A DNA stretch of 64,000 bases from a virus. The position numbers and the translations under genes were made by a program. This document shows, one piece after another, positions 853 to 64,000 of the stretch. The notes below the pieces were generated by a model. It was not told the DNA's origin. It worked only from the letters and a program-made list of their open reading frames with translations, and ran no database searches. The stretch is from UHGV virus genome UHGV-1440165. One strand, given 5' to 3'. The stretch's first letter is position 1. Each line of letters starts with the position of its first letter.

Positions 853-1418
853 TTACGTTCTCCGTAGAATTTAACGAACGGTGCCCAACCATCAAATGGA
901 TTGAGGAATTCGTAGTCCACTTTCATCTGGTCAATGAAAGCCTCTATATCGTCCTCTATGATACCAGCGCGGTCGGCCTTTGAAATGCGGGTGATAGGGC
1001 ATTTCGTACTCAGCGCCCATTCATATTCCTGAGGGGTGCGCAGATCGCTCACGATATAATGGACGTCAGGGTTCTGCTCTACCAGAGGAAGCTGGAAGCG
1101 CTTGAAGAATGCCAGGAACAGATCAGGCTGTACGTAACGCAAGCCCGTATCGCTGCCTAGATGAAGCCAGATCTGCCGTGGGGTTAAGCCCTTGGGGTTA
1201 TCAGGGTGGACGTAAGGAACGTCCTTCACGGCATCCTCCACCTCCGCTGGAAGCCATGGATAGATGAAGTTGGCAACCCGGCGCAGTTCGTCTGAGAACG
1301 AAAGGCGCTGGATATCCATATCGCCCTGTAGATGGTGATAGCTGATGAGGGACTCCAAACAGAAGTCCTTACCGGAGCGCTTGCGCCCCGTAAAGAATTC
1401 AAGGTTAGGATACATCAT
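849..1418 (-). CDS. deoxynucleoside monophosphate kinase (T4 gp1-like)
   Basis: N-terminal P-loop FFTGRKRSGKDF comparable to T4 gp1 FLSGVKRSGKDT; size 189 aa. Confidence 0.7.
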   Translation of the reverse strand: MMYPNLEFFTGRKRSGKDFCLESLISYHHLQGDMDIQRLSFSDELRRVANFIYPWLPAEVEDAVKDVPYVHPDNPKGLTPRQIWLHLGSDTGLRYVQPDLFLAFFKRFQLPLVEQNPDVHYIVSDLRTPQEYEWALSTKCPITRISKADRAGIIEDDIEAFIDQMKVDYEFLNPFDGWAPFVKFYGERK

Positions 1419-2464
1419 TCTTTATCACCCAGGAACTTAGGATCAACAATCTTGCGGTCAACCGGGGAATGGGTGAGCGCGACGTTCAGGGACTGGTCAC
1501 TGACGTTATCCAGATTGATGAGCTTACCACTCAGCTTGCACCACAGGCAGTATGCCATATCCAGAATTAACCCGGCATCGGCTCCGTGTTCGTGTAGAGT
1601 TTTCATAACGTCTAACCATGATGAACCTTTGGAAATCACTTCAACGATATCGGCGAACATGACTCGGATACGTGTTTGATTCCCAGGGACACCAAACAAA
1701 ATAGGGGAGAAGTAAGAACCCGTGTGGAATACACTGGTGGCAGGAGTAATTTTACCCAGCTGCTTCTGGCTGACTTCATTGTTGTAATAATGAAGGTTGT
1801 TAGAGAAGAGGCGGTACAGCCCAACTTCCACATTCAGCACCCTAGCGACGATCTCTTGGAGGATGGAGAATTCAATGAAATTGATTGAACTCATGCCCCA
1901 CAGAACATCCTGAGATCGGTTGATGACTGTTAGGTTCAGGCGACCATCCACGATAGAGAACAAAAGGGCTAGGTTACACACCATATCCTTGGTCTTTGGT
2001 TCCCCGCTTTCGTTGGACCAGATCAGACCAGAGTCCGAGTCAAGAGCAGGGTCATAGATGGTGAGGTATGCTTGGCGACTGTTTGGATTTTCTTTCAAGC
2101 GGCGAATCACACTGTCAATCTGACCATAGGCGTACAGGCGCGGTCCATAAGCAGCTCGCCATGTAGTGCCGTTATCAGAGAAGTTGACAGCGCGAGGTAA
2201 TACACGGGAAAGGAACTCAACGTCATTGCGCCCAGCAAGCACCCAGAAAGTCTCACCAATGGCAGCAACAGCAGAAGAGTTGCGCCCTTCCACGGATAAC
2301 CAACGGTCGCGTGGGTTCTGCACGGTGATCGTCACACCGTCAAGGAAGCGGGTGCCGTCAGTGTTGATCTCCGCGTTACCAGGATCAGATTCAATCCCGT
2401 GCTCACGGATAGCCAAGACAGCCTGTTTCAGCATGTCATTGTTGTTTATTGCTTTGATTTCCAT
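1415..2464 (-). CDS. thymidylate synthase-family enzyme, possibly a pyrimidine (dUMP) hydroxymethylase
   Basis: ThyA-like motifs (NPNSRQAYLTIYDP; nucleophile Cys in DMVCNLAL; RSQDVLWG); 349 aa is longer than canonical ThyA; RBS GGGAG upstream; TAATG coupling to neighbouring kinase. Confidence 0.6.
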   Translation of the reverse strand: MEIKAINNNDMLKQAVLAIREHGIESDPGNAEINTDGTRFLDGVTITVQNPRDRWLSVEGRNSSAVAAIGETFWVLAGRNDVEFLSRVLPRAVNFSDNGTTWRAAYGPRLYAYGQIDSVIRRLKENPNSRQAYLTIYDPALDSDSGLIWSNESGEPKTKDMVCNLALLFSIVDGRLNLTVINRSQDVLWGMSSINFIEFSILQEIVARVLNVEVGLYRLFSNNLHYYNNEVSQKQLGKITPATSVFHTGSYFSPILFGVPGNQTRIRVMFADIVEVISKGSSWLDVMKTLHEHGADAGLILDMAYCLWCKLSGKLINLDNVSDQSLNVALTHSPVDRKIVDPKFLGDKE

Positions 2465-3201: not shown

Positions 3202-4116
3202 TTAAGCAGCAGCTTTCGCTTCGGCCAGCGCCTGTGGCAGCCATTCATTGATCGCCTTAACCAGAGACTCAGCATCGGTCTCTTTGATTTTCTGGCGCTT
3301 GGTGAAGGACTTGCCGTTCACGTACAGGCTGAAGCCCCAGCCGCCGGAAACGATAGGCGCGACATCAACGTATGTGTTGGTGCGGGCATGCAGGTTATCC
3401 GGGTTGGCCAGTTCGGTGACCGGGAACTGGAACCAGCGCATGTCTGGGTTCACGTAGCTCAGGAAGACGCCTGGGACAACGCCTGCTTCAATAGCAGCCA
3501 GAATCGGACCGTGGGTAGATGCGCGAGCCGCTTCAACCATTTCTTCACGTTTGGTGTGGCGACGTTTACGCTCTTCAAGAGCGGCCTGCGGAGTGAGGGT
3601 CTTACCCTTCGCCGCTTCTTTCAGCATTGAGGAAGCCAGGGAACCCACTTTGGCGTCGGACGGTTGATCACCTTCAGCCAGAGCAGCATTCACCGCATCT
3701 TTGACGGCATCGGTTGGTTCCGCCGGATCAGCTGGCTCCTGTGCCGCGCCGTCAACGGTTTCAGCCGCTTCTTCACCACCTTCACTACCTGCCACGCCGC
3801 CAGCGTCGGCATTGGTGTTGTCGGCAGATACCGGGACGTCTTTGGTCACGTCTTCGGCGTCTTTCAGGGCTTGCTCGGAATCAGCCTGCTCTTTAGCACG
3901 AGCCAGCGCTTCGGCTTGCTCTTCCTGCTCTTCTTCGCTCAGGCTGGCGATAACTTCGAAGCCGTTGGCGGACTGAAGAACACCTTCCACCATACGGCGC
4001 AGGGTGACGTTGCCGATGATCAGGCCAGCTTCTTTGATTTCAGCCTGGATGGCAGAGACGTCTTTACCTTCAAGATCAAATTTAGAACCAGATTCTACAT
4101 GAAGAATATATGACAT
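3202..4116 (-). CDS. hypothetical protein with acidic low-complexity central region
   Basis: Internal ATG (MSYILHV) at 4116 preferred over ORF-track start; D/E/A-rich centre. Confidence 0.5.
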   Translation of the reverse strand: MSYILHVESGSKFDLEGKDVSAIQAEIKEAGLIIGNVTLRRMVEGVLQSANGFEVIASLSEEEQEEQAEALARAKEQADSEQALKDAEDVTKDVPVSADNTNADAGGVAGSEGGEEAAETVDGAAQEPADPAEPTDAVKDAVNAALAEGDQPSDAKVGSLASSMLKEAAKGKTLTPQAALEERKRRHTKREEMVEAARASTHGPILAAIEAGVVPGVFLSYVNPDMRWFQFPVTELANPDNLHARTNTYVDVAPIVSGGWGFSLYVNGKSFTKRQKIKETDAESLVKAINEWLPQALAEAKAAA

Positions 4117-4254
4117 AATAAAAACCCTTTCGTTATTAAGACCGTCTTCGCGGCATATTGCTGTTCTGACTGTGTAGTGAGAACATAATATACTGCATTT
4201 TTCATAGATGTAAACCACTTTTTATTGAAAAGAAGTTAACACCATCGTGTTAAA

Positions 4255-4280
4255 CAGCGCCCAGCCAAGCGGGGCGCGAA
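4255..4280 (-). terminator. GC-rich hairpin (GCGCCC...GGGCGC) downstream of 4323..5075
   Basis: Inverted repeat in intergenic region. Confidence 0.3.
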
Positions 4281-4322
4281 CTTGCGTGAATAATAACTTT
4301 CAACGTCGATATTGAAAACAAA

Positions 4323-5075
4323 TTATTCTTTGGTCAGATAGAAGTTCGGAACTTCAGGACATGCCTCTGGGAGATAGTACCCCACGACACCCTGCTTCAC
4401 TTTCTTCTCAATGTCATCACGGATTTTGCGAACAACTTCTTCCTTCTGCTCGTTGGCCATAACTTCCTCCATGGCACTGTACAGAGAATCAACGATGACG
4501 CTGACATAGTTGTGGATGGCGCGACAAGTGTTCTGGTCATAAACCATATCCGGATCGATCTTGAGATCAACCTGATCGCGTCCGACCAGCAAATGCCCGC
4601 CAGACACGTTAACAGTGTGTTTGAACACATCACTAGATTTCATGACCACGCCATCGGCCTGTGCCAGGTAGAACTCAGTTTTAGAGAAATTCTCCAGAAC
4701 TTCGGCCGGGAAATCGATTTGGATGTCACTACGGTGGCGGCCAAGGTAGTACAGGCAATGTGATAACTTGGAACACGCTTCTTGCGCCATCTTCATGTGC
4801 GCTTTGGCATGTTCATAACCAGCCAGGACGTCGCGGACAAAGTCTGCAACTTCTTGGTTTCCGTATTTGACTTCGTCTTCGAAGTCCATAGCAGTAGGAC
4901 TGTCCGGCTCAATACCCAGCATGTCGAACAGGTTGCGTTCGCGAACAGATTTACCCTGGCGGTCGAAGCCGAGTTTACAACCGACTTCAAACCCGGTTGG
5001 TTCGAAGGTGGTCAGTTTCACATCAAGGCGAGCTGGTGTAAAGTCCAGCCCGAACAGACGATATAGTTGTGACAT
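4323..5075 (-). CDS. hypothetical protein (250 aa)
   Basis: Long ORF in operon context. Confidence 0.55.
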   Translation of the reverse strand: MSQLYRLFGLDFTPARLDVKLTTFEPTGFEVGCKLGFDRQGKSVRERNLFDMLGIEPDSPTAMDFEDEVKYGNQEVADFVRDVLAGYEHAKAHMKMAQEACSKLSHCLYYLGRHRSDIQIDFPAEVLENFSKTEFYLAQADGVVMKSSDVFKHTVNVSGGHLLVGRDQVDLKIDPDMVYDQNTCRAIHNYVSVIVDSLYSAMEEVMANEQKEEVVRKIRDDIEKKVKQGVVGYYLPEACPEVPNFYLTKE

Positions 5076-28398: not shown

Positions 28399-28443
28399 TT
28401 TATATCTCCTGATGGGAATATGGCGGTTTCCCTTAATTAGCGA

Positions 28444-28671
28444 TCAGCCGCGCAATTGATACTGCATGATTCGTGAAAAGCTATCGCTTGTCAGGACGCA
28501 TCCTTCAACGATTTCCACAGAAAGATCCTGATCCACCCGATAACGCTTGCCATTCAAATCAAAGTAAACATAGAAATAACCGCGACGTTCCACCATATCC
28601 AGATTACTGATGCTTGAAACTTCTGGCAATTTGGTGATGATCGACTGAACGATATAAGACAACACATTCAT
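28444..28671 (-). CDS. hypothetical protein
   Basis: Start MNVLSY with AAGGAA RBS. Confidence 0.4.
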   Translation of the reverse strand: MNVLSYIVQSIITKLPEVSSISNLDMVERRGYFYVYFDLNGKRYRVDQDLSVEIVEGCVLTSDSFSRIMQYQLRG

Positions 28672-28693
28672 GATATAGTTCCTTCGGTTCAAA

Positions 28694-28927
28694 TTAAAGA
28701 GAGGCTTCAGATTTCACAACAGCTACCAGGGCGGCAATTTTCTTGCTGCTGGTAATCTTTTTACGGCTACCCTGGTTGCCCGCTTTCGGGGTGTTCAGCT
28801 GTACTACTGGGGTGTCAGTCTCGGCACCGTAAACGTGGTAAAAACCTTCACCTTCAACAGTAAATGTAGCGTGGGAAGCAAAGCGGCTAACTGCTGGTAC
28901 AAAGTAAAAACCGGTTACTGTAGTCAT
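28694..28927 (-). CDS. hypothetical protein (78 aa)
   Basis: Start MTTVTG with AAGGAA RBS; own promoter. Confidence 0.45.
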   Translation of the reverse strand: MTTVTGFYFVPAVSRFASHATFTVEGEGFYHVYGAETDTPVVQLNTPKAGNQGSRKKITSSKKIAALVAVVKSEASL

Positions 28928-28975
28928 GGTGTAGTTCCTTCGTTTCAAGTTGGTGTCGTACTGCTTATGTATTGA

Positions 28976-29004
28976 AGTATAGGGAAGGTTATTGAAGAAG
29001 TAAA
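28976..29004 (-). promoter_or_regulatory. sigma70-like early promoter TTTACT-N17-TATACT
   Basis: Directly follows terminator hairpin GGGGCTTTTGCCCC. Confidence 0.55.
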
Positions 29005-29022
29005 GGGGCAAAAGCCCCTTTT
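29005..29022 (-). terminator. rho-independent terminator (GGGGCTTTTGCCCC)
   Basis: Stem-loop after 29035..29673. Confidence 0.55.
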
Positions 29023-29034
29023 ATTGAATTATTT

Positions 29035-29673
29035 TTACGGTGTTGGGTTCACAACAGGAATATGGAATCTGATTCCAGCGATGATGTCCTTCAGCTGAGG
29101 TTTCCAGCCAGCCACCAAGCGAGGGAGAGCGACAGAACCGGGCTGAACTAAAATGATGTCGCTGCCTGTGATGTTGTGCTGAGGGAATTGGGCAAGATAT
29201 TGCTCCATTGTGACGCCCGGATCAATCAGAACAGGACCAACATCAGATGATGCATAAGTCGCACCCAGACCGTCAACACCCCATGCCAAGATACCCCAGT
29301 CAGGGATGTTGGCTTCAGATGTGATGGTGAACCCAAACACGGTGTTCAGCGAGGTGAAGGAGTAGACGTCGTGAGTGATGTCATACACCAGATACCCCTT
29401 GGCCAGCATATCGGCAAAGATCGCGTCTGTGTCTCCCGCCGCTGGAGTCGGTACGGTAAACAACAGCTCACCAGCCGGAGGAACAGGATACGTGCCGAGG
29501 GCATAGAGGCACCATGCGTCAATGCACTTCTTAATGAATGTCTCTGACGCCACATAATCGGCAAGGCGAACCGTGCCTGAGTACTCGGATACGATGATGC
29601 CTTCCTTCGCGCCCTGTAGAGCAATGAAGACCAAGATATGTTCATATCCGGTCTGGGATGGAGTGATGTTCAT
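29035..29673 (-). CDS. hypothetical protein (212 aa)
   Basis: ORF. Confidence 0.5.
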   Translation of the reverse strand: MNITPSQTGYEHILVFIALQGAKEGIIVSEYSGTVRLADYVASETFIKKCIDAWCLYALGTYPVPPAGELLFTVPTPAAGDTDAIFADMLAKGYLVYDITHDVYSFTSLNTVFGFTITSEANIPDWGILAWGVDGLGATYASSDVGPVLIDPGVTMEQYLAQFPQHNITGSDIILVQPGSVALPRLVAGWKPQLKDIIAGIRFHIPVVNPTP

Positions 29674-30287
29674 TATCTTGTCCTCTTCAGTTTCTCTATT
29701 GTGCGCTTGTTCATGGCGATCACCTGAGGGTCCACCTCAGAGATTGAGCGCCCTTTGAAGGACACACATTTCTGAAGATATTTAGCTTTCTTCACGACGT
29801 CAGCAGCATATGCATTGGACGCAGAATTACGGGCGAAGCCAGCATTGTACGAGGAGAGGGATTTGCGGACATTCTGTTTGTGATAGGTCAACCAGAACTG
29901 CATCTCATCGAGGGCGGCCTGAGCAGCATATTCCTGATCAGTCAGCAGCTTGACAGCAACATTGGCATAACACTTGCGATTCTTACAACCTTCGCGATCA
30001 CCAACAGTCTTCACCTTATTCTGAAAGGCTCCCATGTTGGCCGCCTTGAGGCCGTATCGCATTGACACTACATCTTCACCAGCGCGGCTCTCTCGCCAGG
30101 ATATGGCAGCCAGGGTGTAACCAAGATCTTGTGTCTTGCCTATGTGATAGGCAGTTGCCAGCGTATTAAGTTGTTGCTCAGAGAAATCATAAACACATTG
30201 ACTTGTATTTTGGGAAGCGTGCACATTCCCGCTGGCAATGGTAAAGGTCACGGATAAGGCCATGGCCTTCAACGTTGTCATCGTCAT
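29673..30287 (-). CDS. secreted protein with signal peptide; possible transglycosylase-like fold
   Basis: N-terminal signal peptide (cleavage near VHA-S); WRES motif; function uncertain. Confidence 0.4.
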   Translation of the reverse strand: MTMTTLKAMALSVTFTIASGNVHASQNTSQCVYDFSEQQLNTLATAYHIGKTQDLGYTLAAISWRESRAGEDVVSMRYGLKAANMGAFQNKVKTVGDREGCKNRKCYANVAVKLLTDQEYAAQAALDEMQFWLTYHKQNVRKSLSSYNAGFARNSASNAYAADVVKKAKYLQKCVSFKGRSISEVDPQVIAMNKRTIEKLKRTR

Positions 30288-30386
30288 GATGGCGTTCCTT
30301 ATGTGGTTTGTCGACTTGCAGCTCGATTGAGCCTCCTGACAGGGGTTAAAAGATAAAGGGCACGTGATATTTAGTGCCCTTCAGCC

Positions 30387-30671
30387 TCATTCGTAGATGA
30401 GGTGGTAGGATTCCTCGATACACTCCAGCCAGCCATAGACGAACTCCATCGGGTCATCCCAGGCCGTATTGGTCGCGACGGTGAAGTTGCCGTCCAGGAT
30501 CTGCATATCGTGGTACTTGTTGAAAGCGAGCACAGCGTCAACCACAATCAGGCCGCCTTGCTCAAGATAACGATTCGGATTGACCGTCACCTGATAATGC
30601 GGGTTCCGGCGGTTCCATATCTCCACAGCAATGTCACAGGATTCCTGAATTTCATCTTTGTTTTCTGACAT
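30387..30671 (-). CDS. hypothetical protein (94 aa)
   Basis: ORF. Confidence 0.45.
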   Translation of the reverse strand: MSENKDEIQESCDIAVEIWNRRNPHYQVTVNPNRYLEQGGLIVVDAVLAFNKYHDMQILDGNFTVATNTAWDDPMEFVYGWLECIEESYHLIYE

Positions 30672-30981
30672 ATGTTTGTCTCAGGTGTTCAGTAAAGGAT
30701 TTACCCAGCTTGCGGAATAGTTTAATACGCCCGATGACTTTGACGTAAACATCTCCGTGACAGGGGTGCGGCTTACACCAGCACCCCAGGATCTTCCCAT
30801 CAAGCTCAAGGAGTTCATCCTCGGTGATATCCCCTTCAATCAGGCGCACATACAGATCGTCCTCAAACAACTCTATGCAGTTGCCCCGCCCGTGGTCTTT
30901 GACCTCGAATGGGTTCCCCCATTTACCGGGACGACCGATGTAGATGTCGTATGGCTCCTTCTTGAAGTGGACGACTTTCAT
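30652..30981 (-). CDS. DUF4326-family protein
   Basis: Characteristic pattern VHFKKEPYDIYIGRPGKWGNPF ... GCWCKPHPCHGDV. Confidence 0.6.
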   Translation of the reverse strand: MKVVHFKKEPYDIYIGRPGKWGNPFEVKDHGRGNCIELFEDDLYVRLIEGDITEDELLELDGKILGCWCKPHPCHGDVYVKVIGRIKLFRKLGKSFTEHLRQTYVRKQR

Positions 30982-31146
30982 TTCAGGATTTGACCTGCAA
31001 GTAGATAACAGAACCAGACAGAGAACCCGAGATACCCCAGTGCTTTCAGGTAGTTTTTCCTTTCGGTTTCACGAGAAAATGCAATGATGTCAATGATGCA
31101 TGCAAAGATCAGAATAGCCAGTTTAATTTGTTCGTAGTTCATGATC
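30982..31146 (-). CDS. small membrane protein (~54 aa), not in ORF track; coordinates approximate
   Basis: Hand translation MNYEQIKLAILIFACIIDIIAF...; ATG overlaps stop of gp46-like gene (ATGA). Confidence 0.3.
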
Positions 31147-33481
31147 AATCCTTCTTGATAACTTCGGTCAGGCCGTTGCGCAGGCCATAGCGAATATTGT
31201 GTTGGAAGTATTCCTGGAACTCCTGCTCACGCTGGCTGATGACAAACAGGTTGTTTCCGCCGAACTTATGCTTCAGCATCTCAACCGATTCCTGCACCCC
31301 GCGCTCACTCATGTTCTCAAGGATTTCGTCCAGGACAAACAGATTACATTGCACCGATGCCTTGAGGTTAGCCACGTCACGCAGAGCTAGTGTCACCGCC
31401 AGGTTCAGGCGGCTCCGCTGGCCAGTAGACAGGGAGAAGATGCTCTGCCCCTTGCGGCCTGCTGCACTCATGGTGATCTCAAAGGTATCGTCAACAACGA
31501 TGTCCAGGAACATATTGAGGGCTTCAAGATACTCGTTGATCTTGCTATTGAGGAATGGCAAGTACAGGGCGATGATGCGCGCCTTGGTCTGATCATCCTT
31601 CAGGAAGAACAACAGGTGCTGTAAGTCCTGGAGTTCCTGGTCAGCATCCTCGCCGCGCTGGTATAGATCTTCCAGTTCACCCTCAATCGAGGAGATGGCA
31701 TTCTCCAGGTCGGCGGTAGGCGTCGGCTGTACGGCCAGTTTACGCTCCAGGTCGGCAATGGACGCCACGAGAGGAGCACGACGGGCTTTCATCTCGGCGA
31801 TCTTATCATCGACGGCTTTAATCCCGCTGACGGCATTCTCTCGCGTTTGTTGTAGTGACGCAGTGATATCATCGAAGCGCACATTCAGTGCCTTGCGGAT
31901 ATCAAGGATCTTCTGCTGGCATTCACGATTCAGAGAGTTGCACTCAATCGTGGCTGCATCATGGAATCCCTGAATGTCACGGCGCAGTTGCTTGATGTTA
32001 TCAACGATCTCATCAGCCTGTTTGCGCATGGCGTCCAGTTCAGCATCCAACACAGCAATGTCCGCAACCAGCTTGTCGTCCTGAGCCTTATGGTCATCAA
32101 TCAGGGCAGTGACTTCGGCGGTGACTTTATCCAACTGGTTTAACTTCGATTGCAGTTCCTGGATCTGAGGATTGTACTCGCTCTCAATGCGCGCTTTGGT
32201 ATCGTCGGACACCAGCTGGGTACACGTCGGGCAAGTCCCCATGTCGTGGAAGCGCTTGATGGCTGACTGATGGCCGTCCATTTCTGTTTGGAAACGGATG
32301 CGGAAGTTCTCACCCTGTTGGCGGCGCTGGATAGCAGCGTTCAGGGCGTCCAGGTTTGTGTTGCGCTCGGTGAGCAGAGTGTTTTTGCTTTCGGCTACTG
32401 TAAAGGCGCGGTCACGCAGGACCTGAAGATCATGCTCAGCAGCAGAAACCTCGATGCGTTCATAATCGTCGGCCTTTTCCTGGGCGACATCCTTCACCGC
32501 CTGGATCTTGGCATCAAAGTCTTTCTTGACAGCCTCGATCTCCACCATGGATTCATCATGCAGGCGGCTTTCTACCGTCTTCATTTCCTGGGTGGCTTCA
32601 AACTCAACCGCAGTGAGGCGGGTGCGCTCCTCATTCTGTGCGGCGATGTCAGCGTCCAAGGACTTCAGGGCTTCCTGTTGCTGTAAAAGGATATCAGCCG
32701 ACTGCTGCTGGATCAGGGCGTTGGATTGCTCAATCTGCTGCAGCTGCGTTTTCTTGTTCGTGTGGTCAACAACCTTCAGGGCGCACTCATTGGCGATCGT
32801 GTCCAGCTTTTCGTTCGCTTTCTTGATGGACGCCTTGACATCTTCATTCATCAGGCTGAAGAAGCCCAAGTCCCAGATAGTCTCCACCATGGCGCGGCGG
32901 TCGGCGGTGTACATCTCGGTGAACGGAATGAACTTCTCTTTACCCAGCACCAGAGAGTTCTCAAACATCTTCTGGTCCACTCCGATGAGGTTCACGATGT
33001 ACTTGTTCATGTCGGCTTTGGCTGCTTCGTTATCGATCTGCATCCATTTGCCGTCCACCATCTGATGGACTTCAACAAAGTCAGGCTTGATGCCACGACG
33101 AACCTTCCATTCGCTGCCACGGCAGGCAAACTCCACCTCACCCACACATTCCTTGCGGCTCTGTGAGTTCACCAGGCCTGCCTTCTTCTCCTTCTTGCTG
33201 TACGTGTCGTTGTACAGTACGAAGAACAACAGCCATACCAGCATCGTGGATTTACCCGCGCCGTTATCGTCAGACGTGACGAGGGTGGCCGGGTTGCGCT
33301 GGTAATCGATCTCCATGAACTGATTGCCGATGGAGCGGAAGTTCTTGGCGCGGCCTTTGCGGAAGGTCAGTTTGTGCGTAATGTTGTCACACACTTCAAA
33401 TGGGACTTCGACCTCAACCGGAGTGTCGGCTACCTTCAAAAGATTGCCAAATTTGGCCAGGATATCTGTGCTCTGAGTCAT
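31145..33481 (-). CDS. Rad50/SbcC-like recombination ATPase (T4 gp46-like)
   Basis: Walker A DDNGAGKST, long coiled coil with zinc-hook CPTC, signature LSTGQRSR, Walker B LFVLDE. Confidence 0.85.
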   Translation of the reverse strand: MTQSTDILAKFGNLLKVADTPVEVEVPFEVCDNITHKLTFRKGRAKNFRSIGNQFMEIDYQRNPATLVTSDDNGAGKSTMLVWLLFFVLYNDTYSKKEKKAGLVNSQSRKECVGEVEFACRGSEWKVRRGIKPDFVEVHQMVDGKWMQIDNEAAKADMNKYIVNLIGVDQKMFENSLVLGKEKFIPFTEMYTADRRAMVETIWDLGFFSLMNEDVKASIKKANEKLDTIANECALKVVDHTNKKTQLQQIEQSNALIQQQSADILLQQQEALKSLDADIAAQNEERTRLTAVEFEATQEMKTVESRLHDESMVEIEAVKKDFDAKIQAVKDVAQEKADDYERIEVSAAEHDLQVLRDRAFTVAESKNTLLTERNTNLDALNAAIQRRQQGENFRIRFQTEMDGHQSAIKRFHDMGTCPTCTQLVSDDTKARIESEYNPQIQELQSKLNQLDKVTAEVTALIDDHKAQDDKLVADIAVLDAELDAMRKQADEIVDNIKQLRRDIQGFHDAATIECNSLNRECQQKILDIRKALNVRFDDITASLQQTRENAVSGIKAVDDKIAEMKARRAPLVASIADLERKLAVQPTPTADLENAISSIEGELEDLYQRGEDADQELQDLQHLLFFLKDDQTKARIIALYLPFLNSKINEYLEALNMFLDIVVDDTFEITMSAAGRKGQSIFSLSTGQRSRLNLAVTLALRDVANLKASVQCNLFVLDEILENMSERGVQESVEMLKHKFGGNNLFVISQREQEFQEYFQHNIRYGLRNGLTEVIKKD

Positions 33482-33482
33482 G

Positions 33483-34598
33483 TTATGCGTCCAATTTGTT
33501 CAGGCGTTGTTGGGCAGCATTGTAGAAATGCTCTGCCAGTTTACAGACGTTGTCAGGGCGCTGGATGTTGTTCCCGGCGCGGATATCCTTCTTCAGGACT
33601 TCCACCGCATCGGTCGCCACCATCTCTTCGGTGACCTCAACCTTCTCAGCCGCCACTGTAATCGTCCGGTCTATGAAGTTGTAGTCAATGCACTTGCAGC
33701 GCTTCATTGCATCACAGAACTTTTCATAATGCTTGGCGTTGTCACGGTTCTGTACGATAACCTTAACGATTTGCCCTTCAATACCCAAGCCTGTGTTCAG
33801 CCATTCCGGGTCGATCCAGTTGCCTTCTTCATCGGAGGACAACTTGGTGTAGTCATACTCCACGAACCGGAAGAGCGTCTGGTGCTCGGCGTTCGGGATA
33901 AAGATCTCGCCACCGCGCATGTCGTCTACATAGAAGCCCCGGTTGGTGCCGTCTTTGTAGTCTTCCCAGTTCAGGTGATACGGAGTCCCAATATACTGAA
34001 TGTTACCTTCCATCGAACGGGTATGGAAATGCCCTGTGTCGACCCGGTCAAACTTGGAAAGCAATGCAACGTCGATCTGACCGTGATCACAAGTAGAGGA
34101 CTGGTACATTTTGAACCCTGCCAGCTCCAGATGCGCAAAACAGTACTTGGCGTCTGTATCTTGTATCGCCTTAATAGACGCATCATAGTTCTCCTTGTTG
34201 ATCCACGGTAGGAGCAGGGTCTTAACGCCCTCGATCATTACTTCAGTCGGTTCACTGTAATAGTGATAGACATCTGGGTCGAGTTCGTTCAGGTAGGACG
34301 GCCAGTTGATGCGGTTGGACTCTTCCAGGGTGATGTCATGGTTGCCCACGATGCCATTCCACTTGATACCAGCAGCTTTCAGCGCAGGAGTGAGTTCGTC
34401 CTTCAGCCAGTCTTTGTCGCGCCCGTACATGAATTTGCGGACATCAAAGGTGTCACCAAACTGCCAGATCTCTTTGATGTCAGAGTCAACAAGCTCAGGG
34501 ATGAAGTAATTGATGAGATAGTTCTTTATGAAGTCGCGAACGTAACGGGAACCATTACGGCTCCCGATATGCAGATCGCCGATTTTAGCAATCGCCAT
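33483..34598 (-). CDS. Mre11/SbcD-like nuclease (T4 gp47-like)
   Basis: Calcineurin-like phosphoesterase motifs GDLHIG, GDTFD, GNHD. Confidence 0.85.
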   Translation of the reverse strand: MAIAKIGDLHIGSRNGSRYVRDFIKNYLINYFIPELVDSDIKEIWQFGDTFDVRKFMYGRDKDWLKDELTPALKAAGIKWNGIVGNHDITLEESNRINWPSYLNELDPDVYHYYSEPTEVMIEGVKTLLLPWINKENYDASIKAIQDTDAKYCFAHLELAGFKMYQSSTCDHGQIDVALLSKFDRVDTGHFHTRSMEGNIQYIGTPYHLNWEDYKDGTNRGFYVDDMRGGEIFIPNAEHQTLFRFVEYDYTKLSSDEEGNWIDPEWLNTGLGIEGQIVKVIVQNRDNAKHYEKFCDAMKRCKCIDYNFIDRTITVAAEKVEVTEEMVATDAVEVLKKDIRAGNNIQRPDNVCKLAEHFYNAAQQRLNKLDA

Positions 34599-35326
34599 TA
34601 TTCTGTTTCTCCTTCGTTTTCGTCCAGATCGAATTGGGTGTTGCCGAAGTCTTGATCTGAATTGTCTTCGGCCTGCGCTGTTACCGTATTCTTACCTTGT
34701 GACATGTATTGAAGTATGCCTTTCGCGATCTTTTTGTTCGATTCGGCGGCTCGGGCGTTCTCTACCTTCTCCCGCTCCTTCTGTCTTTGGGCATCCTTCT
34801 TGTTTTCGAAGTTTCCGATGCGCTCGCGGAAGTCCATGCCAATCCCAGTGGCATCAACAAAGATCTCTTGTTGGAAGTCAGGATCATCGGCCAGGCCTGC
34901 AAATCCACCTGCCTCTTCAAAGGAACGCAGCTTGATGTATGTGTGCTCTTCTTCTATGTTCAGCTTGCGGGCAAATGAGCGGTCAGCGCACATGGTCACC
35001 CAGGAGAAGAAGTTGATCTTGCCTTTGCGCCCGACGTGACCAACATCGAAGGTGTGGAGATAGCGAAGGATGTTGACTACAGCTTCAGACACCATGTCAT
35101 CGCGGTACGGATAATCGCGGTAATTGTAGCGGGTGCTCATCTTGCTGATGATGCGCTGGACCTGGACTGCAACGTAGTTGGGGATCTTGGGGAGCGGTGT
35201 GCCTTCAGTTAATGCCTTCTTGCGAGCGGGGATCCAATCACGAAGGATACTGATGACACGCTCGTTATCTTCGTCCGTAAAATATTTGACGACATTCTCG
35301 CCACGATCAACATAATTCATACCCAT
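34598..35326 (-). CDS. late-transcription sigma factor (T4 gp55-like)
   Basis: Region similar to gp55 core; gene order 55-47-46 as in T4; TATAAATA boxes present in window. Confidence 0.55.
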   Translation of the reverse strand: MGMNYVDRGENVVKYFTDEDNERVISILRDWIPARKKALTEGTPLPKIPNYVAVQVQRIISKMSTRYNYRDYPYRDDMVSEAVVNILRYLHTFDVGHVGRKGKINFFSWVTMCADRSFARKLNIEEEHTYIKLRSFEEAGGFAGLADDPDFQQEIFVDATGIGMDFRERIGNFENKKDAQRQKEREKVENARAAESNKKIAKGILQYMSQGKNTVTAQAEDNSDQDFGNTQFDLDENEGETE

Positions 35327-35337
35327 TGTGGGAACCC

Positions 35338-35865: not shown

Positions 35866-35867
35866 GA

Positions 35868-35875
35868 TATAAATA
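35868..35875 (+). promoter_or_regulatory. T4-type late promoter box TATAAATA
   Basis: Exact box ~36 nt upstream of ATG at 35911. Confidence 0.5.
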
Positions 35876-35910
35876 TCCCAAACTGGTTTTATAGAAAGAG
35901 GAATGAAACT

Positions 35911-43518: not shown

Positions 43519-44025
43519 TTATAGGGTAACAAGTGATACGGTAAAAACCATCGTCCCGTCAGTTGCCATTTTTCTTGAAACTGGTATGACGCGAGGCTGG
43601 CAGAATATCCATTCTTTCTCCATGGACGCCAAGTCCAGCATATCCATTTCTGATTCATCGCCTTTGTTCACAAATTTTTCTAGAGAACCATAGACATTAA
43701 GCCCCTCCGGGAGTCCGTTTCGATGTTTGTAACATATGCGGGCGACAGCTCTGGTTCCATACGATTTAGAAAATTGTTTGGCCACATGCTTCAGTTCACT
43801 GAAGCTAAGACAAGAATCCCATGTCTGAAACATGTCTCCTCGTTCAAACATCATCTCCAAACGCGCAACGTCCTCTTTAGGCAACCCGCGATAAAGTGTG
43901 GTCATCTGCGGTTCGCGTAATTCTCGCACCAGACCACGGATGGCAGGGGAAACAGTGCCAGGGCGCATGATGTGGGACTTATCATGGACGAGGTAAAATA
44001 AATCTTGAATTTGTTGATCGGTCAT
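43519..44025 (-). CDS. mono-ADP-ribosyltransferase, T4 ModA/ModB-like
   Basis: R motif TLYRGLPKE (T4 ModA PLWRGVPAE), S-x-S region DSCLSFSE, ExE-like SMEKEWIF, in ModA order and spacing. Confidence 0.55.
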   Translation of the reverse strand: MTDQQIQDLFYLVHDKSHIMRPGTVSPAIRGLVRELREPQMTTLYRGLPKEDVARLEMMFERGDMFQTWDSCLSFSELKHVAKQFSKSYGTRAVARICYKHRNGLPEGLNVYGSLEKFVNKGDESEMDMLDLASMEKEWIFCQPRVIPVSRKMATDGTMVFTVSLVTL

Positions 44026-47574: not shown

Positions 47575-49239
47575 TTAGATTTGTGAGGCCAGTTCTGCCA
47601 CCAGAGGAGCAGCACGAACACGCGCATCTTCCAGAGTCTGAGTGTTGAAGAACTTGCCATCACGGTACACCAGTTGGTGTTGGTTGTCGGCGTCTTGCAC
47701 CTGATCAAAGGTGATGCCGTCAACCAACACTAGTTTACCCTGAGAGTCTTTAATGACTTTAAGGAAACCACGCGCAGACTTTTTAGTCCCGCCTTTGTCG
47801 GTCTTCGGCTCTTTGAAGATCTCGCGGAATTCACCGTTCACCTTACCAGCCGTCGCTTTCACTGCCGTTCCAGTACTGTCACGGGTGTTCATCTGGTAGG
47901 TGTAGGAACCAATACCGAAGACCACGTTAATGGAAGCGAAGTTCCGGCCAGCCAGACGACCAAAGATCTGGTCTTCACGTGCCAATGTGATAGAGTCACC
48001 GTAGATCAGACCGATGTGATCGTCCAACAGGAAGTGGCCAGTCTCAGTTTGAGTACCGCCAAAGATCTCCCACAGGCGCTGAATAGAGCCGACTGCTTCA
48101 GAACGGCTGATGATATTACTGTCGTCTGCCATCAGAGAGTTGATCGTACCTTCGCCTGTGATCAGGTGATAGGTGTTCGTCTCTTCGATGTGGATGACTT
48201 CGGTGCTGCTGGACACGCCGCTGATGTTCAGCATAGCGCGGTCTTTGAACCCCTCGATGCGGTAGCCGCCGACGATGTGAACTGGGTCGCCAGAGTCAGG
48301 GCGGATCACGACTTTGCCGTTGCGTGCCATGATAATGTCTTTCAGGCGAGGGAGATAGTCGTCGATGACCTGCCAATAGTCCCACGCATCCGACACAATG
48401 CTGACGATGCCATCAGGATACACGTCCTGCACCAGGCGACGGAAGGTTTCGAATTCTCCATTCTTCGTACCCATGCACATCACGGCGTGTTCGGTGGCTG
48501 CAACGGAGCCAGCAACGACATAGTCTTCATCGATATCCGCGCCGTAATACTCTTCAACGAAGTCCAGGGCAGGGTTGGTGTCAGTGCCTTTGAAGAACAC
48601 CAGATGGCCAGAACCGGAAGACGCCGCGTCATGCCATCCGCTCATACCACGGAAGGAGAAGTCGTGGCCTTGGTAATCGATGAACCAATGGTCCGGTGAC
48701 ACGCCTGTGGCGATAGCGGCTTTCACCATCAGTGCCTTGTAATGCAGGGCGATGGTGGCGTTCGTCATGGGCTTCCAGATCTCAGAGCTGAACACAGTCT
48801 CCAGATAGTTGGTCAGCCAGTAGAACTCCGGCAAGGTGTTGAACATCACATACACCGGAACGCCATACGGGCACATGGTGCCTTCGGGTAGAGCACGGAC
48901 TTCGATAGGCAGATAACCGAGGTCATGCAGGGCTTCGATATGCTCTGTGCCAACACGACCTGGACCCAGTACTTTGTTCATGCGACGGGCATACTTCTTC
49001 AACACCTTGGCCTTCGGGCGCTGGAAGAACGCTTCGTCAAACAGTTCGTGGAACCAGGTCATGAAACCCTGGATGCCCCAGACCACCACGCCGTTCTTCG
49101 GCAGGTGAGAGTTGAATAATTTGTTGGAACGCGGAGTCCCGTTGGAGAACACCAGCTCACTACCTTCAGGGAACTGATAGATGTGCCCTGATTTGTAGAA
49201 GTCGATTGCATGAATTGGGTCTAAGTGGCGCATGCTCAT
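47575..49239 (-). CDS. nicotinamide phosphoribosyltransferase-family enzyme (NadV/NAMPT-like; candidate NARP1 Namat)
   Basis: Full-length NAMPT-like sequence (554 aa) read from the translation; no single motif checked. Confidence 0.75.
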   Translation of the reverse strand: MSMRHLDPIHAIDFYKSGHIYQFPEGSELVFSNGTPRSNKLFNSHLPKNGVVVWGIQGFMTWFHELFDEAFFQRPKAKVLKKYARRMNKVLGPGRVGTEHIEALHDLGYLPIEVRALPEGTMCPYGVPVYVMFNTLPEFYWLTNYLETVFSSEIWKPMTNATIALHYKALMVKAAIATGVSPDHWFIDYQGHDFSFRGMSGWHDAASSGSGHLVFFKGTDTNPALDFVEEYYGADIDEDYVVAGSVAATEHAVMCMGTKNGEFETFRRLVQDVYPDGIVSIVSDAWDYWQVIDDYLPRLKDIIMARNGKVVIRPDSGDPVHIVGGYRIEGFKDRAMLNISGVSSSTEVIHIEETNTYHLITGEGTINSLMADDSNIISRSEAVGSIQRLWEIFGGTQTETGHFLLDDHIGLIYGDSITLAREDQIFGRLAGRNFASINVVFGIGSYTYQMNTRDSTGTAVKATAGKVNGEFREIFKEPKTDKGGTKKSARGFLKVIKDSQGKLVLVDGITFDQVQDADNQHQLVYRDGKFFNTQTLEDARVRAAPLVAELASQI

Positions 49240-50090
49240 TTTACACGTCCTGTATTTTCAGTTTTGAAAGGAAGACCGTCGGCGGTGATGTTCTCCCACC
49301 AGACAGTGTCGGCATACACAGCATCGTAGATCCCGTCGAAAACAGAGAGACCTTTGCTGAAGATGCCATGGGTAACGAAGAGCGTCATGTGCTTAGGCTT
49401 GTGCTTCTGAAGCTCTTTACCCAGCTCAACAAACGTGCGCCCACCGTCGCAGATATCATCAACCACAACCAGATAGCGGTCTTTGATCAGTTCAGGGTTT
49501 GTAATACTCACCCCAATGATTTCACCAGTCTTGGTGTCACGGTTCTTGTGTCCGTAGACAACAGGAACGCCATCCAATGACAGGCTGAGGGTTTCGGTCT
49601 TCTTCGCCGCGCCGCCGTCAGGGGCTACCAGCACAGCATTGTTCCCACGGATGAACCAGCCCAGATACTGGCGCACGATGTGATCTTGTGGGACCACATG
49701 GACGTTGTTGATCAGGGAAGACACAACATGGCTGTGAGGGTCTTTGATCGCCACGCGGTCAAAGTTCATGTTGTTGATGAACTCAGCCGCCCACTTCACG
49801 GACAGAGGCTCGCCGAAGTCGCAATGGCGGTCCTGGCGAGCATACGGGAAGTAAGGGATATACGCATGGAAGGTAGTCAGACGGTCCACGTTACCCAGGC
49901 CGCGCACGGCGTTTACCAGAAGCGCCAGCTCAATGAAGTCGGCTGATGATTTGATGTGAGCATCAATCACCACGTTCTGGACGTGACCGACAGGGATGCC
50001 AGCCTTTTGGATCTTGATATGTTCCTCACCACCTGGGAAGGTGAAGTGCTTGTAGAACACATCTTGGTCGTTCAATTTCAAACGAAACAT
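49236..50090 (-). CDS. ribose-phosphate pyrophosphokinase-family enzyme (Prs-like; candidate NARP1 Adps)
   Basis: PRPP-binding motif VVVDDICDGGRT; 284 aa; ATGA-coupled to NAMPT-like gene. Confidence 0.75.
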   Translation of the reverse strand: MFRLKLNDQDVFYKHFTFPGGEEHIKIQKAGIPVGHVQNVVIDAHIKSSADFIELALLVNAVRGLGNVDRLTTFHAYIPYFPYARQDRHCDFGEPLSVKWAAEFINNMNFDRVAIKDPHSHVVSSLINNVHVVPQDHIVRQYLGWFIRGNNAVLVAPDGGAAKKTETLSLSLDGVPVVYGHKNRDTKTGEIIGVSITNPELIKDRYLVVVDDICDGGRTFVELGKELQKHKPKHMTLFVTHGIFSKGLSVFDGIYDAVYADTVWWENITADGLPFKTENTGRVK

Positions 50091-53611: not shown

Positions 53612-54832
53612 TTATTCAGGTTTCTTCAAACGATCAAGGAGATTGACAGAGCTGCGACCGAGCACAACTTCATCACAGCGCTTCTTGTAAGCACCACTTC
53701 CGTCATAACCGACCTTACCCCGAGGCTTATCTCCCCGTTGAACGGCTTCTACGCAGCGGGTGTACTTGCTCAGTTCACAGAACATGTTCTCCAGCTGCAT
53801 GACGTTCATACACTGATCTTCCGGGGCTTCAGCCGACCAGAACTGCTCCCGGACATAACCATAGTCCCCGTAAATCGAATCCTGGTGGTCACGCAGCCAG
53901 AAGATACATTCTTCATGCGTCATGCCGTCCTTGTTCAGGAACAACAGGTCGATCCCAGCGCGGCAACCCGGTCCAGCGATAGTGAAATGGTTCTCACTGA
54001 ACGGATACTCAGGAATGTACGTGAAGTCCACCCAGATCTGATAGGCCAGGAATGGACCCAAGCCTTCGATTTCGTCGTACATGGCCTGGTAGACTTCATC
54101 CGGAGATTCGCATTCCAGCAGCCGCTCGAAGTAATCAGGGTGCTTGTTGACGAATGCCCTCAGAGAACGGATGACGCGCATCGGCATGTACGGTTCCCAA
54201 CCCTCAATGGTGTAGAAGTCCGGCTCTGCTTCAGCAATTGCCTTCGCTTCTTTATAATCCATATTCTGGGTTGAACCGTCTTTGCAGATCAGATTCACCA
54301 TCATCCCACCGAAGCGCTGCTCCTTGTGGTTGACAACCAGCTCAGGGAAAGCCAGGCATTGCTTCAGGCCGCCCGTGTTGAAAGCATTGGTGAAGACTTT
54401 GCCGCCGTTGGCCTCGAACTTCTGTAAACGTTCGCGGGTCGCGTCAAGGTTGATCTTGGCGAAGTCGGAGATCGTCATCGCGCCGCCGATAGCCTGGATC
54501 GGATCCCAGAGGTTAAACATGCGGAACAACACGCAGTTGAACATCTTATCCGGCATAGACAGCGCATCGTTGTTAACGATGTTGTTGATTAGGTTGAGAG
54601 ACTGCCTGTCGTGCTCTCTCCGGACGTTGCAGAACTTGACCTGCCGTAGTATGGCATTATCCGTCCAAGGAGCAGGAAGACGCTGGACGTCCTTCTTAAC
54701 GTGGATCTTGTATCGCTCGCTCATCCATTCGTAAGAAAGACGACGATGAAACGGACTGAGCACGGGCTTGGCGGACTTGATTTTATCTTCGCGGACACCA
54801 CAATAAGGGATGTCACGGGCTTTATCTTTCAT
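53612..54832 (-). CDS. hypothetical protein (406 aa), candidate DNA-modification enzyme
   Basis: Start MKDKAR with GAGGA RBS; family not confirmed. Confidence 0.5.
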   Translation of the reverse strand: MKDKARDIPYCGVREDKIKSAKPVLSPFHRRLSYEWMSERYKIHVKKDVQRLPAPWTDNAILRQVKFCNVRREHDRQSLNLINNIVNNDALSMPDKMFNCVLFRMFNLWDPIQAIGGAMTISDFAKINLDATRERLQKFEANGGKVFTNAFNTGGLKQCLAFPELVVNHKEQRFGGMMVNLICKDGSTQNMDYKEAKAIAEAEPDFYTIEGWEPYMPMRVIRSLRAFVNKHPDYFERLLECESPDEVYQAMYDEIEGLGPFLAYQIWVDFTYIPEYPFSENHFTIAGPGCRAGIDLLFLNKDGMTHEECIFWLRDHQDSIYGDYGYVREQFWSAEAPEDQCMNVMQLENMFCELSKYTRCVEAVQRGDKPRGKVGYDGSGAYKKRCDEVVLGRSSVNLLDRLKKPE

Positions 54833-54901
54833 GGTATCCTCACAGAATACGAAAACAGAGGCCATTATAAGCCTCTGCTGTTTAGTGAATAACTGGTTGT
54901 C

Positions 54902-55774
54902 TTAATCGATACGGGTCAGCTGGGTGATCGATGGAGTGATCGGAGTAGCGACGAACACGCGGACGTTAGCTTTCCATTTACCCCAGATCAGTGGCACGTC
55001 TGGCATGTTCTCTTTGTCAAACACAAACACCGGAACATAGCTTTCCATCGCTGTATCAGCATGCGCCTGGAAGCCAGGTTCCATGTACTGCATGATAGAA
55101 CGGACGAAGTCGAATGGGGCGAACCCGACACCAGCTTGTTCGTTGAAGCCGATCTGACCAGAATCGGCAGTGGCGGTCAGGATGATCTCAGTGATCTGAT
55201 GCTTAGGGGTAGCCGTCAGCATATCGGAGAAGTCAGGCTCTTTGAAGGTGGCCATGTTCTTCAGGAACTTCCCAGCCGGGTACTCTTTACCGTCGACGGT
55301 GATGGTGTCAACCACCTTGATGCAAGCCTGAGGGAATTCGCCTTCGATGCGCAGACTTTCACGTGGGAAGCCTTTATCGTAATAGTAGTCCAGCGCTGGC
55401 ACAACTTCATCCATGCTGCGGACGAACTTGCTCATGTTAGAGGCATACACGCGCTGTAAGCATTCATCGCCGTCGAAACCAGCAATGTGCGCCACGCCGT
55501 CGTTGACAGTTGTGATGTCGCCCTGGGCATCCATGATCTGGCGCATGATGTCTTTGGTGTCTACGATGGCAGGGGCGTCGCTCGGCTTAGGATTGACCGT
55601 CAGAGTCAAAGTCACATCGTGGTCAAAGAACGCCGCTTCCAGCAGTTCACGAGTTTCTTCCAGCACCAGTTTGGCCTGGTTGCGGATCTTTGCGAAGTTG
55701 GGCGACGTCACATCGCCCTTTGCATTACCGAAAGCCAGATTCAGTTTCACGTTCTTGTCAAATGTAGTTGTCAT
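54902..55774 (-). CDS. hypothetical protein (290 aa)
   Basis: Start MTTTFDK. Confidence 0.45.
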   Translation of the reverse strand: MTTTFDKNVKLNLAFGNAKGDVTSPNFAKIRNQAKLVLEETRELLEAAFFDHDVTLTLTVNPKPSDAPAIVDTKDIMRQIMDAQGDITTVNDGVAHIAGFDGDECLQRVYASNMSKFVRSMDEVVPALDYYYDKGFPRESLRIEGEFPQACIKVVDTITVDGKEYPAGKFLKNMATFKEPDFSDMLTATPKHQITEIILTATADSGQIGFNEQAGVGFAPFDFVRSIMQYMEPGFQAHADTAMESYVPVFVFDKENMPDVPLIWGKWKANVRVFVATPITPSITQLTRID

Positions 55775-55790
55775 AATATAGCGACTCCAG

Positions 55791-56255
55791 TTATTCGCTT
55801 TTGGCCTTCGTAGGCCGGATGATGTATTTTGGAACCAGCTTCCATTCAGGAACCTGATCATGTTTGACCACTTTGATGCGAGACATATCGGCGGCCTCAG
55901 TGATCTGCTCAGGGTTCAGAACCTTCAACATGTTCCACTGCTCCAGCAGCTTGATGATGCGGTTCATTCGCAGGATGTCCTCACGGTTGAAGCCGTTGTA
56001 GTGGCCATCCAGCATGAACAGATGCTTGAAGTGAACGATATAATACTTGCCATACTTATGAAGAATATGACAAGTCTGGTACAGAGTATTCGGCTCTTGG
56101 CGCGTGTTTACCCCAATTCGGCTCAGTGTTTCCTTGATCCCCAGGAAGATCCCTGGCCGATCTTGGTTCAATTGAACTTCAACCATACAATCAACGATGC
56201 TGGCCTCATCGTTGACGGCTGAAATGTTCAATATGTCTAGCGTATTGCGCGCCAT
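55791..56255 (-). CDS. regA: translational repressor RegA
   Basis: TLYQTCHILHKYGKYYIVHFKHLFMLDG matches T4 RegA VLYQSCHILQKKGLYYIVHFKEMLRMDG; C-terminal EWKLVPKYIIR matches. Confidence 0.8.
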   Translation of the reverse strand: MARNTLDILNISAVNDEASIVDCMVEVQLNQDRPGIFLGIKETLSRIGVNTRQEPNTLYQTCHILHKYGKYYIVHFKHLFMLDGHYNGFNREDILRMNRIIKLLEQWNMLKVLNPEQITEAADMSRIKVVKHDQVPEWKLVPKYIIRPTKAKSE

Positions 56256-63790: not shown

Positions 63791-64000
63791 TTACTTCAGG
63801 GCGCTCTTCAGATTATCGGAACCGATGTTGTTGATGACGCCTCCGGCACACAGATCTTTAGCCCACTCGGACAGAACATTGGCAAACGAGAAGTTCAGAC
63901 ACTTGCTGACCATGTCTTGGATGTGGGCTAACTCTGCAGCAATACCATTGGCGATGTCTTGACCGATTTGTGCCACCTGAGCAATAGCAGTATTGATGTA
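63791..64000 (-). CDS. partial CDS (C-terminal part in window; start beyond window end), hypothetical
   Basis: Minus-strand open frame running to window edge. Confidence 0.35.
   Translation of the reverse strand, partial: YINTAIAQVAQIGQDIANGIAAELAHIQDMVSKCLNFSFANVLSEWAKDLCAGGVINNIGSDNLKSALK

Follow-up and report, generated by a model that had tools for sequence, protein, structure and literature searches.

What does a 109-residue protein of the DUF4326 family do for the phage that carries it, and with which of the phage's other genes does it work? The question is raised by a small open reading frame (ORF) at 30652..30981, minus strand, in a 64,000-nucleotide (nt) stretch of viral DNA (UHGV virus genome UHGV-1440165; the whole stretch is called the window below). 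This ORF is intact, evolves under selective constraint and belongs to the DUF4326/T4 NrdA.1 family. The reading that we tentatively favour, and to which we give slightly less than an even chance, is that it encodes an accessory counter-defence enzyme that uses R17, N23 and a C-x-C-x4-C-H centre to act on a nucleotide or adduct of ribose-phosphate or ADP-ribose-derived type. Its most plausible functional partner in this lineage would be a stand-alone YAcAr-type SLOG protein, and not the NAMPT-like/Prs-like gene pair or the ADP-ribosyltransferase (ART)-like gene of the window.

An intact DUF4326 gene with an invariant Cys/His centre

The ATG-initiated ORF encodes 109 amino acids (aa), and its translation includes both strings quoted in the original prediction, which had been made from the letters alone, VHFKKEPYDIYIGRPGKWGNPF ... 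GCWCKPHPCHGDV. The protein matches Pfam DUF4326 (PF14216) at 83.7 bits (E 1.4e-23, profile positions 3-80 of 82), far beyond chance and above the curated gathering cut-off of 25 bits, and it matches PHROG 464, a family of unknown function, at E 8.5e-46; the assignment of a DUF4326-type ORF to this place was thus correct. NCBIfam and PADLOC searches with the 109-aa protein returned no match. The protein consists of a stand-alone single domain of ~85 residues followed by a lineage-specific C-terminal helix. T4 NrdA.1, which itself matches PF14216 (E 5.5e-22), is 40% identical to it over residues 2-86 (E 4e-12).

The source of the window is an Agtrevirus-like phage of the Ackermannviridae: positions 29000-33500 are 97.5% identical to Salmonella phage pSal-SNUABM-02 (genus Agtrevirus), whose orthologue (QOI58416.1, 97% identity to the window protein) is annotated as hypothetical. 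In other relatives the protein bears the name 'NrdA.1 conserved hypothetical protein'. Pairwise ratios of nonsynonymous to synonymous substitution rates (dN/dS) between the DUF4326 gene and six orthologues ranged from 0.045 to 0.092, values that mark the ORF as a genuine gene subject to strong purifying selection. Because the family is catalogued and nearly identical proteins have been deposited, the gene is already known; it is an ordinary member of a family of unknown function and by itself adds little.

The family, on the other hand, is large. Homologues were found in 2170 of 50,697 phage records, with 272 records at an identity of at least 80%, which we took as the Ackermannviridae set. 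When 1.84 billion cluster representatives (50%-identity clusters) were searched with a profile, 23,341 sequences were retrieved at E ≤1e-3 and 9,315 at E ≤1e-10. Haloarchaeal viruses and giant viruses (Pithovirus, Pandoravirus, Marseillevirus) have members too, often within long proteins.

Conservation, judged in 60 sequences, 127 cluster representatives and 10 distant phage homologues, is concentrated in two segments. The first is an N-terminal loop at codons 15-25 (IGRPGKWGNPF; 30907..30939, minus strand) with a near-invariant R17, kept in 126 of the 127 representatives, and N23, invariant across close and distant members. The second is a Cys/His centre at codons 67-77 (C67-W-C69-K-P-H-P-C74-H75-G-D77; 30751..30783, minus strand), the Cys and His residues of which are invariant in the alignments: C67, C69, C74 and H75 were kept in 127/127 representatives and in 10/10 distant phage homologues. 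G22, P24, R32, P71, G76 and D/E77 are nearly invariant. The window protein carries all the family-wide marks, namely R17 in the IGR motif, N23 in the WGN loop, and C67, C69, C74 and H75. The C69-C74 spacing is less rigid, with four residues in 267 motifs, five in five motifs, nine in phage phiH and 13 in a single protein (P0203).

Two further residues were considered and rejected: H5, a candidate fourth zinc ligand, is Asn in 17 of the 127 representatives, and D12, a candidate catalytic residue, varies in distant members. An apparent likeness between P-C-H-G-D and the PCHR motif of O6-alkylguanine transferases was likewise set aside. Some members contain two or three DUF4326 domains in tandem, separated by low-complexity linkers (P0121, 352 aa, and P0122-P0124); CxCx4CH is present in every repeat, and the R17 or N23 positions are lost in some.

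Judged from the alignments, the conservation looks enzyme-like, since polar residues (R17, N23, R32, H75 and D/E77) are kept besides the three invariant Cys. In the mechanism that we propose, the ligand of DUF4326 would be a ribose-phosphate or ADP-ribose-derived nucleotide, which the protein would probably also hydrolyse; alternatively, its substrate could be an ADP-ribosyl-type adduct on single-stranded nucleic acid. R17, N23 and R32 would hold the phosphate, the Cys/His cluster would form a metal (Zn) site or provide a thiol nucleophile, and the protein would probably work with the SLOG protein of the phage.

The same residues could instead belong to a non-catalytic binding module with a C-x-C-x4-C-H zinc site, serving as a nucleotide-signal sponge, a stoichiometric inhibitor or a factor that binds DNA ends or single-stranded DNA (ssDNA). 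The small core of ~85 aa, the Cys3-His pattern with its variable internal spacing, the two- or three-domain tandem arrays with CxCx4CH in each domain, and the mildly basic character of the family (median isoelectric point, pI, 8.6) are what such a module might be expected to show, as are some of the genes found next to it, which encode single-stranded DNA-binding protein (SSB), RNase H, relaxases and gp46/gp47. However, retention of the polar R17, N23, R32, H75 and D/E77 across bacteria, archaeal viruses and giant viruses would be expected rather of a site for catalysis or for precise ligand binding, the fusion partners of the domain are enzymes acting on the same substrate class, and the window protein itself has an acidic core (pI 5.5). 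We consider a purely binding role quite unlikely. Net charge and pI of DUF4326 proteins were uninformative overall.

Fusions, neighbours and candidate partners

Iyer, Burroughs, Aravind and co-workers linked DUF4326 computationally to the processing of nucleotides derived from nicotinamide adenine dinucleotide (NAD+) and ADP-ribose, in predictions built on domain fusions (PMC7824862, PMC9503650). The original prediction had invoked such a link, which is indeed in the literature, and both the fusions and the neighbours were reproduced here independently. Among long family members annotated with Pfam, DUF4326 is fused to NADAR (P0253), to Macro (P0255), to RNase H (P0236) and, C-terminally to its partner, to a YAcAr/DprA-like SLOG (P0158). 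A 212-aa Vibrio phage 'DUF2493-domain protein', matched by structure in BFVD and aligned over 86 columns only, suggests another SLOG-type fusion.

We clustered all ORFs within 5 kb of DUF4326 at 80 viral and 80 cellular loci. In counts made with no phylogenetic correction, the most frequent neighbour was RNase H (20/160 loci), followed by SSB (16/160) and YAcAr SLOG (14/160; 4 viral and 10 cellular loci from diverse taxa). DUF7831 and the MobL relaxase each occurred at 9/160 loci, the TrwC relaxase at 8/160, DNA methyltransferase and HNH endonuclease at 7/160 each, NADAR at 6/160 and dUTPase at 4/160. Relaxases and SSB recur, and many cellular DUF4326 copies therefore lie in mobilisable or conjugative elements beside SSB, a setting that would be consistent with counter-defence.

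Two of these neighbourhoods deserve description in their own right. A block conserved in a mobilisable element of Pyrinomonadaceae/Acidobacteriota (L120, L121, L127, L131, L134, L138, L144, L146 and L152) runs from YAcAr SLOG through SSB, DUF7831, DUF4326, a 547-aa protein that matches no Pfam family, a second SSB, RNase H and an RHH protein to the MobL relaxase at its end, and resembles an island of cargo genes for ssDNA protection or anti-defence. In Crossiella sp. (L096), a single ORF at 3646..4827 (plus strand), directly upstream of the DUF4326 gene, combines an apparent NADAR domain with a C-terminal SLOG-like segment (GGARGSD, by eye), such that all three associated domains would share one locus.

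Fusion (P0158), adjacency (14/160 loci) and co-retention make SLOG the best-supported partner of DUF4326. The co-retention is seen through gp029 of phage SKML-39 (NC_019910.1 28114..28536; L169 114..536, plus strand), deposited as a 'GTP-binding domain', which is a YAcAr SLOG (Pfam, 43.1 bits; E 1.4e-23 with our own hidden Markov model, HMM). Its homologues at an identity of at least 60% are found in 263 phage records, compared with the 272 of DUF4326, and the YAcAr SLOG gene is, like DUF4326, near-universal in the Ackermannviridae. In SKML-39 it lies ~33 kb from DUF4326, and by synteny the corresponding gene would fall just past window position 64000. A second SKML-39 protein, gp161, gave a weak match to a NADAR HMM (E 0.008) that Pfam did not confirm, and was rejected as a NADAR. 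A precedent for the partner comes from ORF83, a SLOG protein listed as anti-Avs type III, the amoeba-virus homologues of which carry a C-terminal DUF4326 (preprint 10.1101/2025.06.06.658234).

The original prediction had looked elsewhere for partners, to the NAMPT/Prs pair and the ADP-ribosyltransferase. These genes are present in the window, all on the minus strand. The NAMPT-like gene (PF04095 by Pfam; 47575..49239) overlaps the Prs-like gene (49236..50090) by 4 nt, and the pair has the two-gene architecture of NARP1 (ADPS + NAMAT). The ART-like ORF (43519..44025, 168 aa) matches the PHROG 'RNA polymerase ADP-ribosylase' (E 1.1e-14) and no Pfam family; by eye, it contains R-S-E-like motifs (YRG, LSFSE and EKEW).

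If DUF4326, the NAMPT-like/Prs-like pair and the ART-like protein formed one NAD+/ADP-ribose module, their presence in the same window and their common theme of ADP-ribose chemistry would be accounted for; NAMPT-like genes are also apparent in DUF4326-carrying Pakpunavirus-like, Kolesnikvirus-like and Vibrio phages, in a comparison in which lineages were assigned by eye and genome size is a confounder. Position and distribution nevertheless argue against a single module. The NAMPT/Prs and ART-like genes lie 13-19 kb from DUF4326 (the pair at ~17-19 kb), in different gene strings with many genes between, and do not form one cassette with it. High-identity homologues were found in 86 phage records for the NAMPT-like gene and 67 for the ART-like gene, as against 272 for DUF4326. 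The complete genome of SKML-39 has DUF4326 and NAMPT/Prs and lacks the ART-like gene, whereas pSal-SNUABM-02, the closest relative, keeps DUF4326 and the ART-like gene but shows no NAMPT/Prs pair over the 44.5 kb of syntenic sequence that was compared. On account of the distance, the record counts and these losses, we conclude that the connection originally drawn between DUF4326 and the NAMPT/Prs and ART-like genes is not supported, and hold a single module to be extremely improbable. NARP1, moreover, is described as needing no more than its two enzymes to convert ADP-ribose to NAD+ (PMC13464706). The T4 region examined contains no NAMPT/Prs pair near nrdA.1. For annotation, we advise that the DUF4326 gene not be described within the NARP1-like or ART functions of these phages.

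Elsewhere in the window, also on the minus strand, there are genes for a 5-hydroxymethyldeoxyuridine (5-hmdU) DNA kinase (53612..54865; PF18723, E 1e-82), a MazG-like pyrophosphatase (54902..55861) and a thymidylate-synthase-like protein (1415..2464). We take these three to be thymidine-hypermodification genes of the kind typical of ViI-like phages.

Dispensability, gene setting and the counter-defence reading

In phage T4, for which genome-wide disruption data are available, the NADAR, Macro and DUF4326 domains each form a protein of their own. According to a transposon-sequencing preprint and its supplement (10.1101/2025.11.20.689424), nrdA.1 is non-essential on E. coli K-12, with 29/31 TA sites disrupted, and is unchanged in the one comparison examined (log2 ratio 0.03, adjusted p 1.0). 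The text of the preprint names adfN (NADAR), as expected, for DarTG1 and adfM (macrodomain) as the only significant hit for DarTG2, and gives the expected T4 genes for RexAB, RnlAB and CBASS.

Damaged DUF4326 copies were found in several Ackermannviridae contigs: L045, L046 and L047 (5001..5129) match residues 67-109 only, L016 (5001..5270) matches residues 20-109 only, and L041 (5001..5223) is frameshifted. These 5'-truncated or frameshifted genes lack the R17/N23 loop although the intact copies are strongly constrained. The gene can therefore be lost, and the pattern among the contigs indicates recurrent loss of a dispensable gene in the Ackermannviridae. DUF4326 would accordingly seem to be a dispensable accessory gene rather than a core replication function.

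The counter-defence reading draws its support from the fusions, the neighbours, the co-retention with SLOG, the ORF83 precedent, this dispensability and the published ADP-ribose prediction. Several points weigh against it. The functional links are all guilt by association, and a literature search under any family name found no experimental characterisation of DUF4326; with neither an experimental paper nor a solved structure found for the family, the caution of the original prediction that the function is unproven was well placed. HMM and phmmer scans of the window detected no SLOG, NADAR or Macro gene. Groups of related loci enter the neighbour counts, among them about ten similar Pyrinomonadaceae elements. 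Tandem DUF4326 repeats are also compatible with binding rather than catalysis. In the text of the T4 preprint on the DarTG1, DarTG2, CBASS and RexAB screens (10.1101/2025.11.20.689424), nrdA.1 is not mentioned, which makes it unlikely that its role in T4 is simply to counter DarT or CBASS, unless redundancy hides such a role; DUF4326 is apparently not needed against DarTG or CBASS in that phage. Finally, in several large phages the DUF4326 gene is found instead in a setting of deoxynucleoside triphosphate (dNTP) synthesis: T4 nrdA.1 lies between td and nrdA, the K64-1 gene between nrdD-associated genes and nrdG, and the XacN1 gene near thyA, two genes from thymidylate synthase.

This last setting suggests a different function, that of an accessory factor in dNTP synthesis, which might, for example, serve ribonucleotide reductase (RNR) or thymidylate synthase as a thiol/redox or regulatory partner. 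The T4 name NrdA.1 and the database labels 'NrdA-like' hint at it, as do the positions just described (in T4, more exactly, between td/nrdA.2 and nrdA) and the dUTPase neighbour at 4 loci, and the invariant cysteines could be redox-active. The setting is, however, not general across the 160 loci. RNR and thymidylate synthase are absent from the neighbour families common to at least three of them, and many cellular copies reside in mobile elements with no dNTP-synthesis genes among the recurrent neighbours. In the window, nrdA/nrdB are ~11-15 kb away and the thymidylate-synthase-like gene ~28 kb away, and the 'NrdA-like' label of PHROG 24867 apparently derives from the gene name, not from RNR homology. 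We accordingly give a role in dNTP synthesis a low probability.

Returning to counter-defence, it is conceivable, if on the whole unlikely, that DUF4326 is the catalytic domain of an unrecognised class of counter-defence enzymes, with a fold that has no solved relative and a Cys3-His (probably zinc) centre. Such an enzyme would act downstream of SLOG, NADAR or Macro, or jointly with them, to eliminate or undo a signal derived from ADP-ribose or an adduct on nucleic acid. If so, this class would be deployed by ~4% of sequenced phages, by amoeba giant viruses, by archaeal viruses and by bacterial mobilisable elements. The family merits experiment in any case: its members are spread very widely over phages, viruses of archaea, giant viruses and mobile elements, it is strongly constrained, and it has a tractable T4 orthologue in nrdA.1. 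It is also repeatedly joined to NADAR, Macro and SLOG, the phage versions of which were recently reported as anti-defence factors, and knowing what it acts on would supply a missing piece in the picture of virus-host conflicts over NAD+ and ADP-ribose.

As for the immediate surroundings of the gene in the window, its placement in the 'early region' by the original prediction was right in a loose sense; DUF4326 sits within a minus-strand replication/recombination block. The order on that strand is a gp55-like late sigma factor, a gp47/Mre11 (SbcD)-like subunit (33483..34598), a gp46/Rad50 (SbcC)-like recombination nuclease subunit (31145..33481), a hydrophobic 56-aa ORF (30978..31148) with only a sub-threshold Pfam match, DUF4326, a 94-aa ORF (30387..30671) with no Pfam family, and then, from the gene string, a lytic transglycosylase (29673..30287) and DUF7270 (29035..29673); the gp47 and gp46 assignments follow the annotations of matching genes in relatives. 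The ATG of DUF4326 overlaps the TGA stop of the upstream 56-aa ORF (ATGA, 30978-30981), and its 3' end shares 20 nt with the downstream 94-aa ORF, which suggests that DUF4326 may be co-translated with the adjoining ORFs. The family of the 94-aa ORF (neighbour cluster 7) was found at 13 viral loci only among the 160, all of them Ackermannviridae-like. In related genomes, unrelated sequence of similar length replaces the interval between the gp46 stop and the DUF4326 start, which holds the 56-aa ORF and forms a small hypervariable slot inside an otherwise conserved gene string. A promoter and terminator scan of 28400-36800 gave results indistinguishable from those for shuffled sequence.

Predicted fold and comparison with known systems

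An AlphaFold2 model of the window protein, built from the 60-sequence alignment, scored well (predicted local distance difference test, pLDDT, 95.2; predicted template modelling score, pTM, 0.86). According to the model, the DUF4326 domain is a small alpha/beta unit, with strands at residues 2-5, 13-14 and 64-67 and helices at 27-30, 32-49, 54-58 and 75-91, to which the lineage-specific helix at 96-108 is added. The Cys/His centre falls between the strand 64-67 and the helix starting at residue 75, and by secondary-structure reasoning the invariant residues would lie at the C-terminal edge of the three-stranded sheet. Foldseek comparison of the model with BFVD gave 30 matches at E ≤1e-3 (best template modelling score, TM, 0.91), most of them named DUF4326 proteins from phages, archaeal viruses and giant viruses; structure prediction and comparison, which had been proposed as a check, thus point to a predicted fold common to other members of the family. 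Against PDB, no Foldseek match fell below E 3.7 and there was no convincing solved relative, and PDB sequence searches with the protein and with the family profile produced chance matches only (flavodoxin, E ~1; RPS21e, 0.62).

DUF4326 has been placed in the rhodanese-phosphatase superfamily (PMC9503650), and under that proposal it would be a divergent enzyme of this superfamily whose active-site Cys strips the terminal ribose phosphate from ADP-ribose or its breakdown products. In the model, the arrangement of strand 64-67, Cys loop and helix from H75 resembles that of Cdc25/PTP-type enzymes, and the C69-X5-H75 spacing equals that of their CX5R motif, a partial resemblance in the motif; the near-invariant R17 and R32 could bind phosphate, and the SLOG, Macro and NADAR fusions would fit a step after ribose-phosphate release. 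The PDB structure and profile comparisons were null, however, and the assignment was therefore not reproduced at the level of the fold: Foldseek of the model against PDB detected no resemblance to the rhodanese, Cdc25 or PTP folds. In DUF4326, H75 stands where CX5R has its signature Arg, and the CX5R loop is of fixed length, whereas the C69-C74 loop has insertions in some members (five residues in five proteins, nine in phiH, 13 in P0203), unlike a rigid phosphate-binding loop. A phosphatase acting on ADP-ribose pyrophosphate (ADPR-PP) would presumably also undo the ADPS step of the phage's own NARP1-like pathway. Because the Arg is replaced by His, two extra Cys are invariant and the C69-C74 spacing varies, we tentatively favour a metal-binding Cys3(-His) centre over a rigid phosphate-binding loop, and regard a Cys-phosphatase as unlikely.

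Among the other known systems closest to DUF4326, NADAR has solved examples in E. coli YbiA (PDB 2b3w) and in a Phytophthora NADAR with ADP-ribose (PDB 8bau); the NADAR (PF08719) profile gave no Pfam match to the window protein at E up to 1, and hhalign of the DUF4326 alignment against an 8-sequence NADAR alignment was null (P 0.57). The YAcAr/DprA-like SLOG proteins, such as ORF83, are of a different fold and family and are not homologous to DUF4326. The closest counterpart is T4 NrdA.1, with 108 aa to the 109 aa of the window protein and with R17, N23, C67, C69, C74 and H75 all kept. Both are encoded by small stand-alone genes in the replication and nucleotide-metabolism part of a large lytic phage, although the T4 gene lies between td and nrdA and that of the window after gp46, and the Ackermannviridae proteins are predicted to possess, in addition, a basic C-terminal helix (residues 96-108) not shared by T4 NrdA.1.

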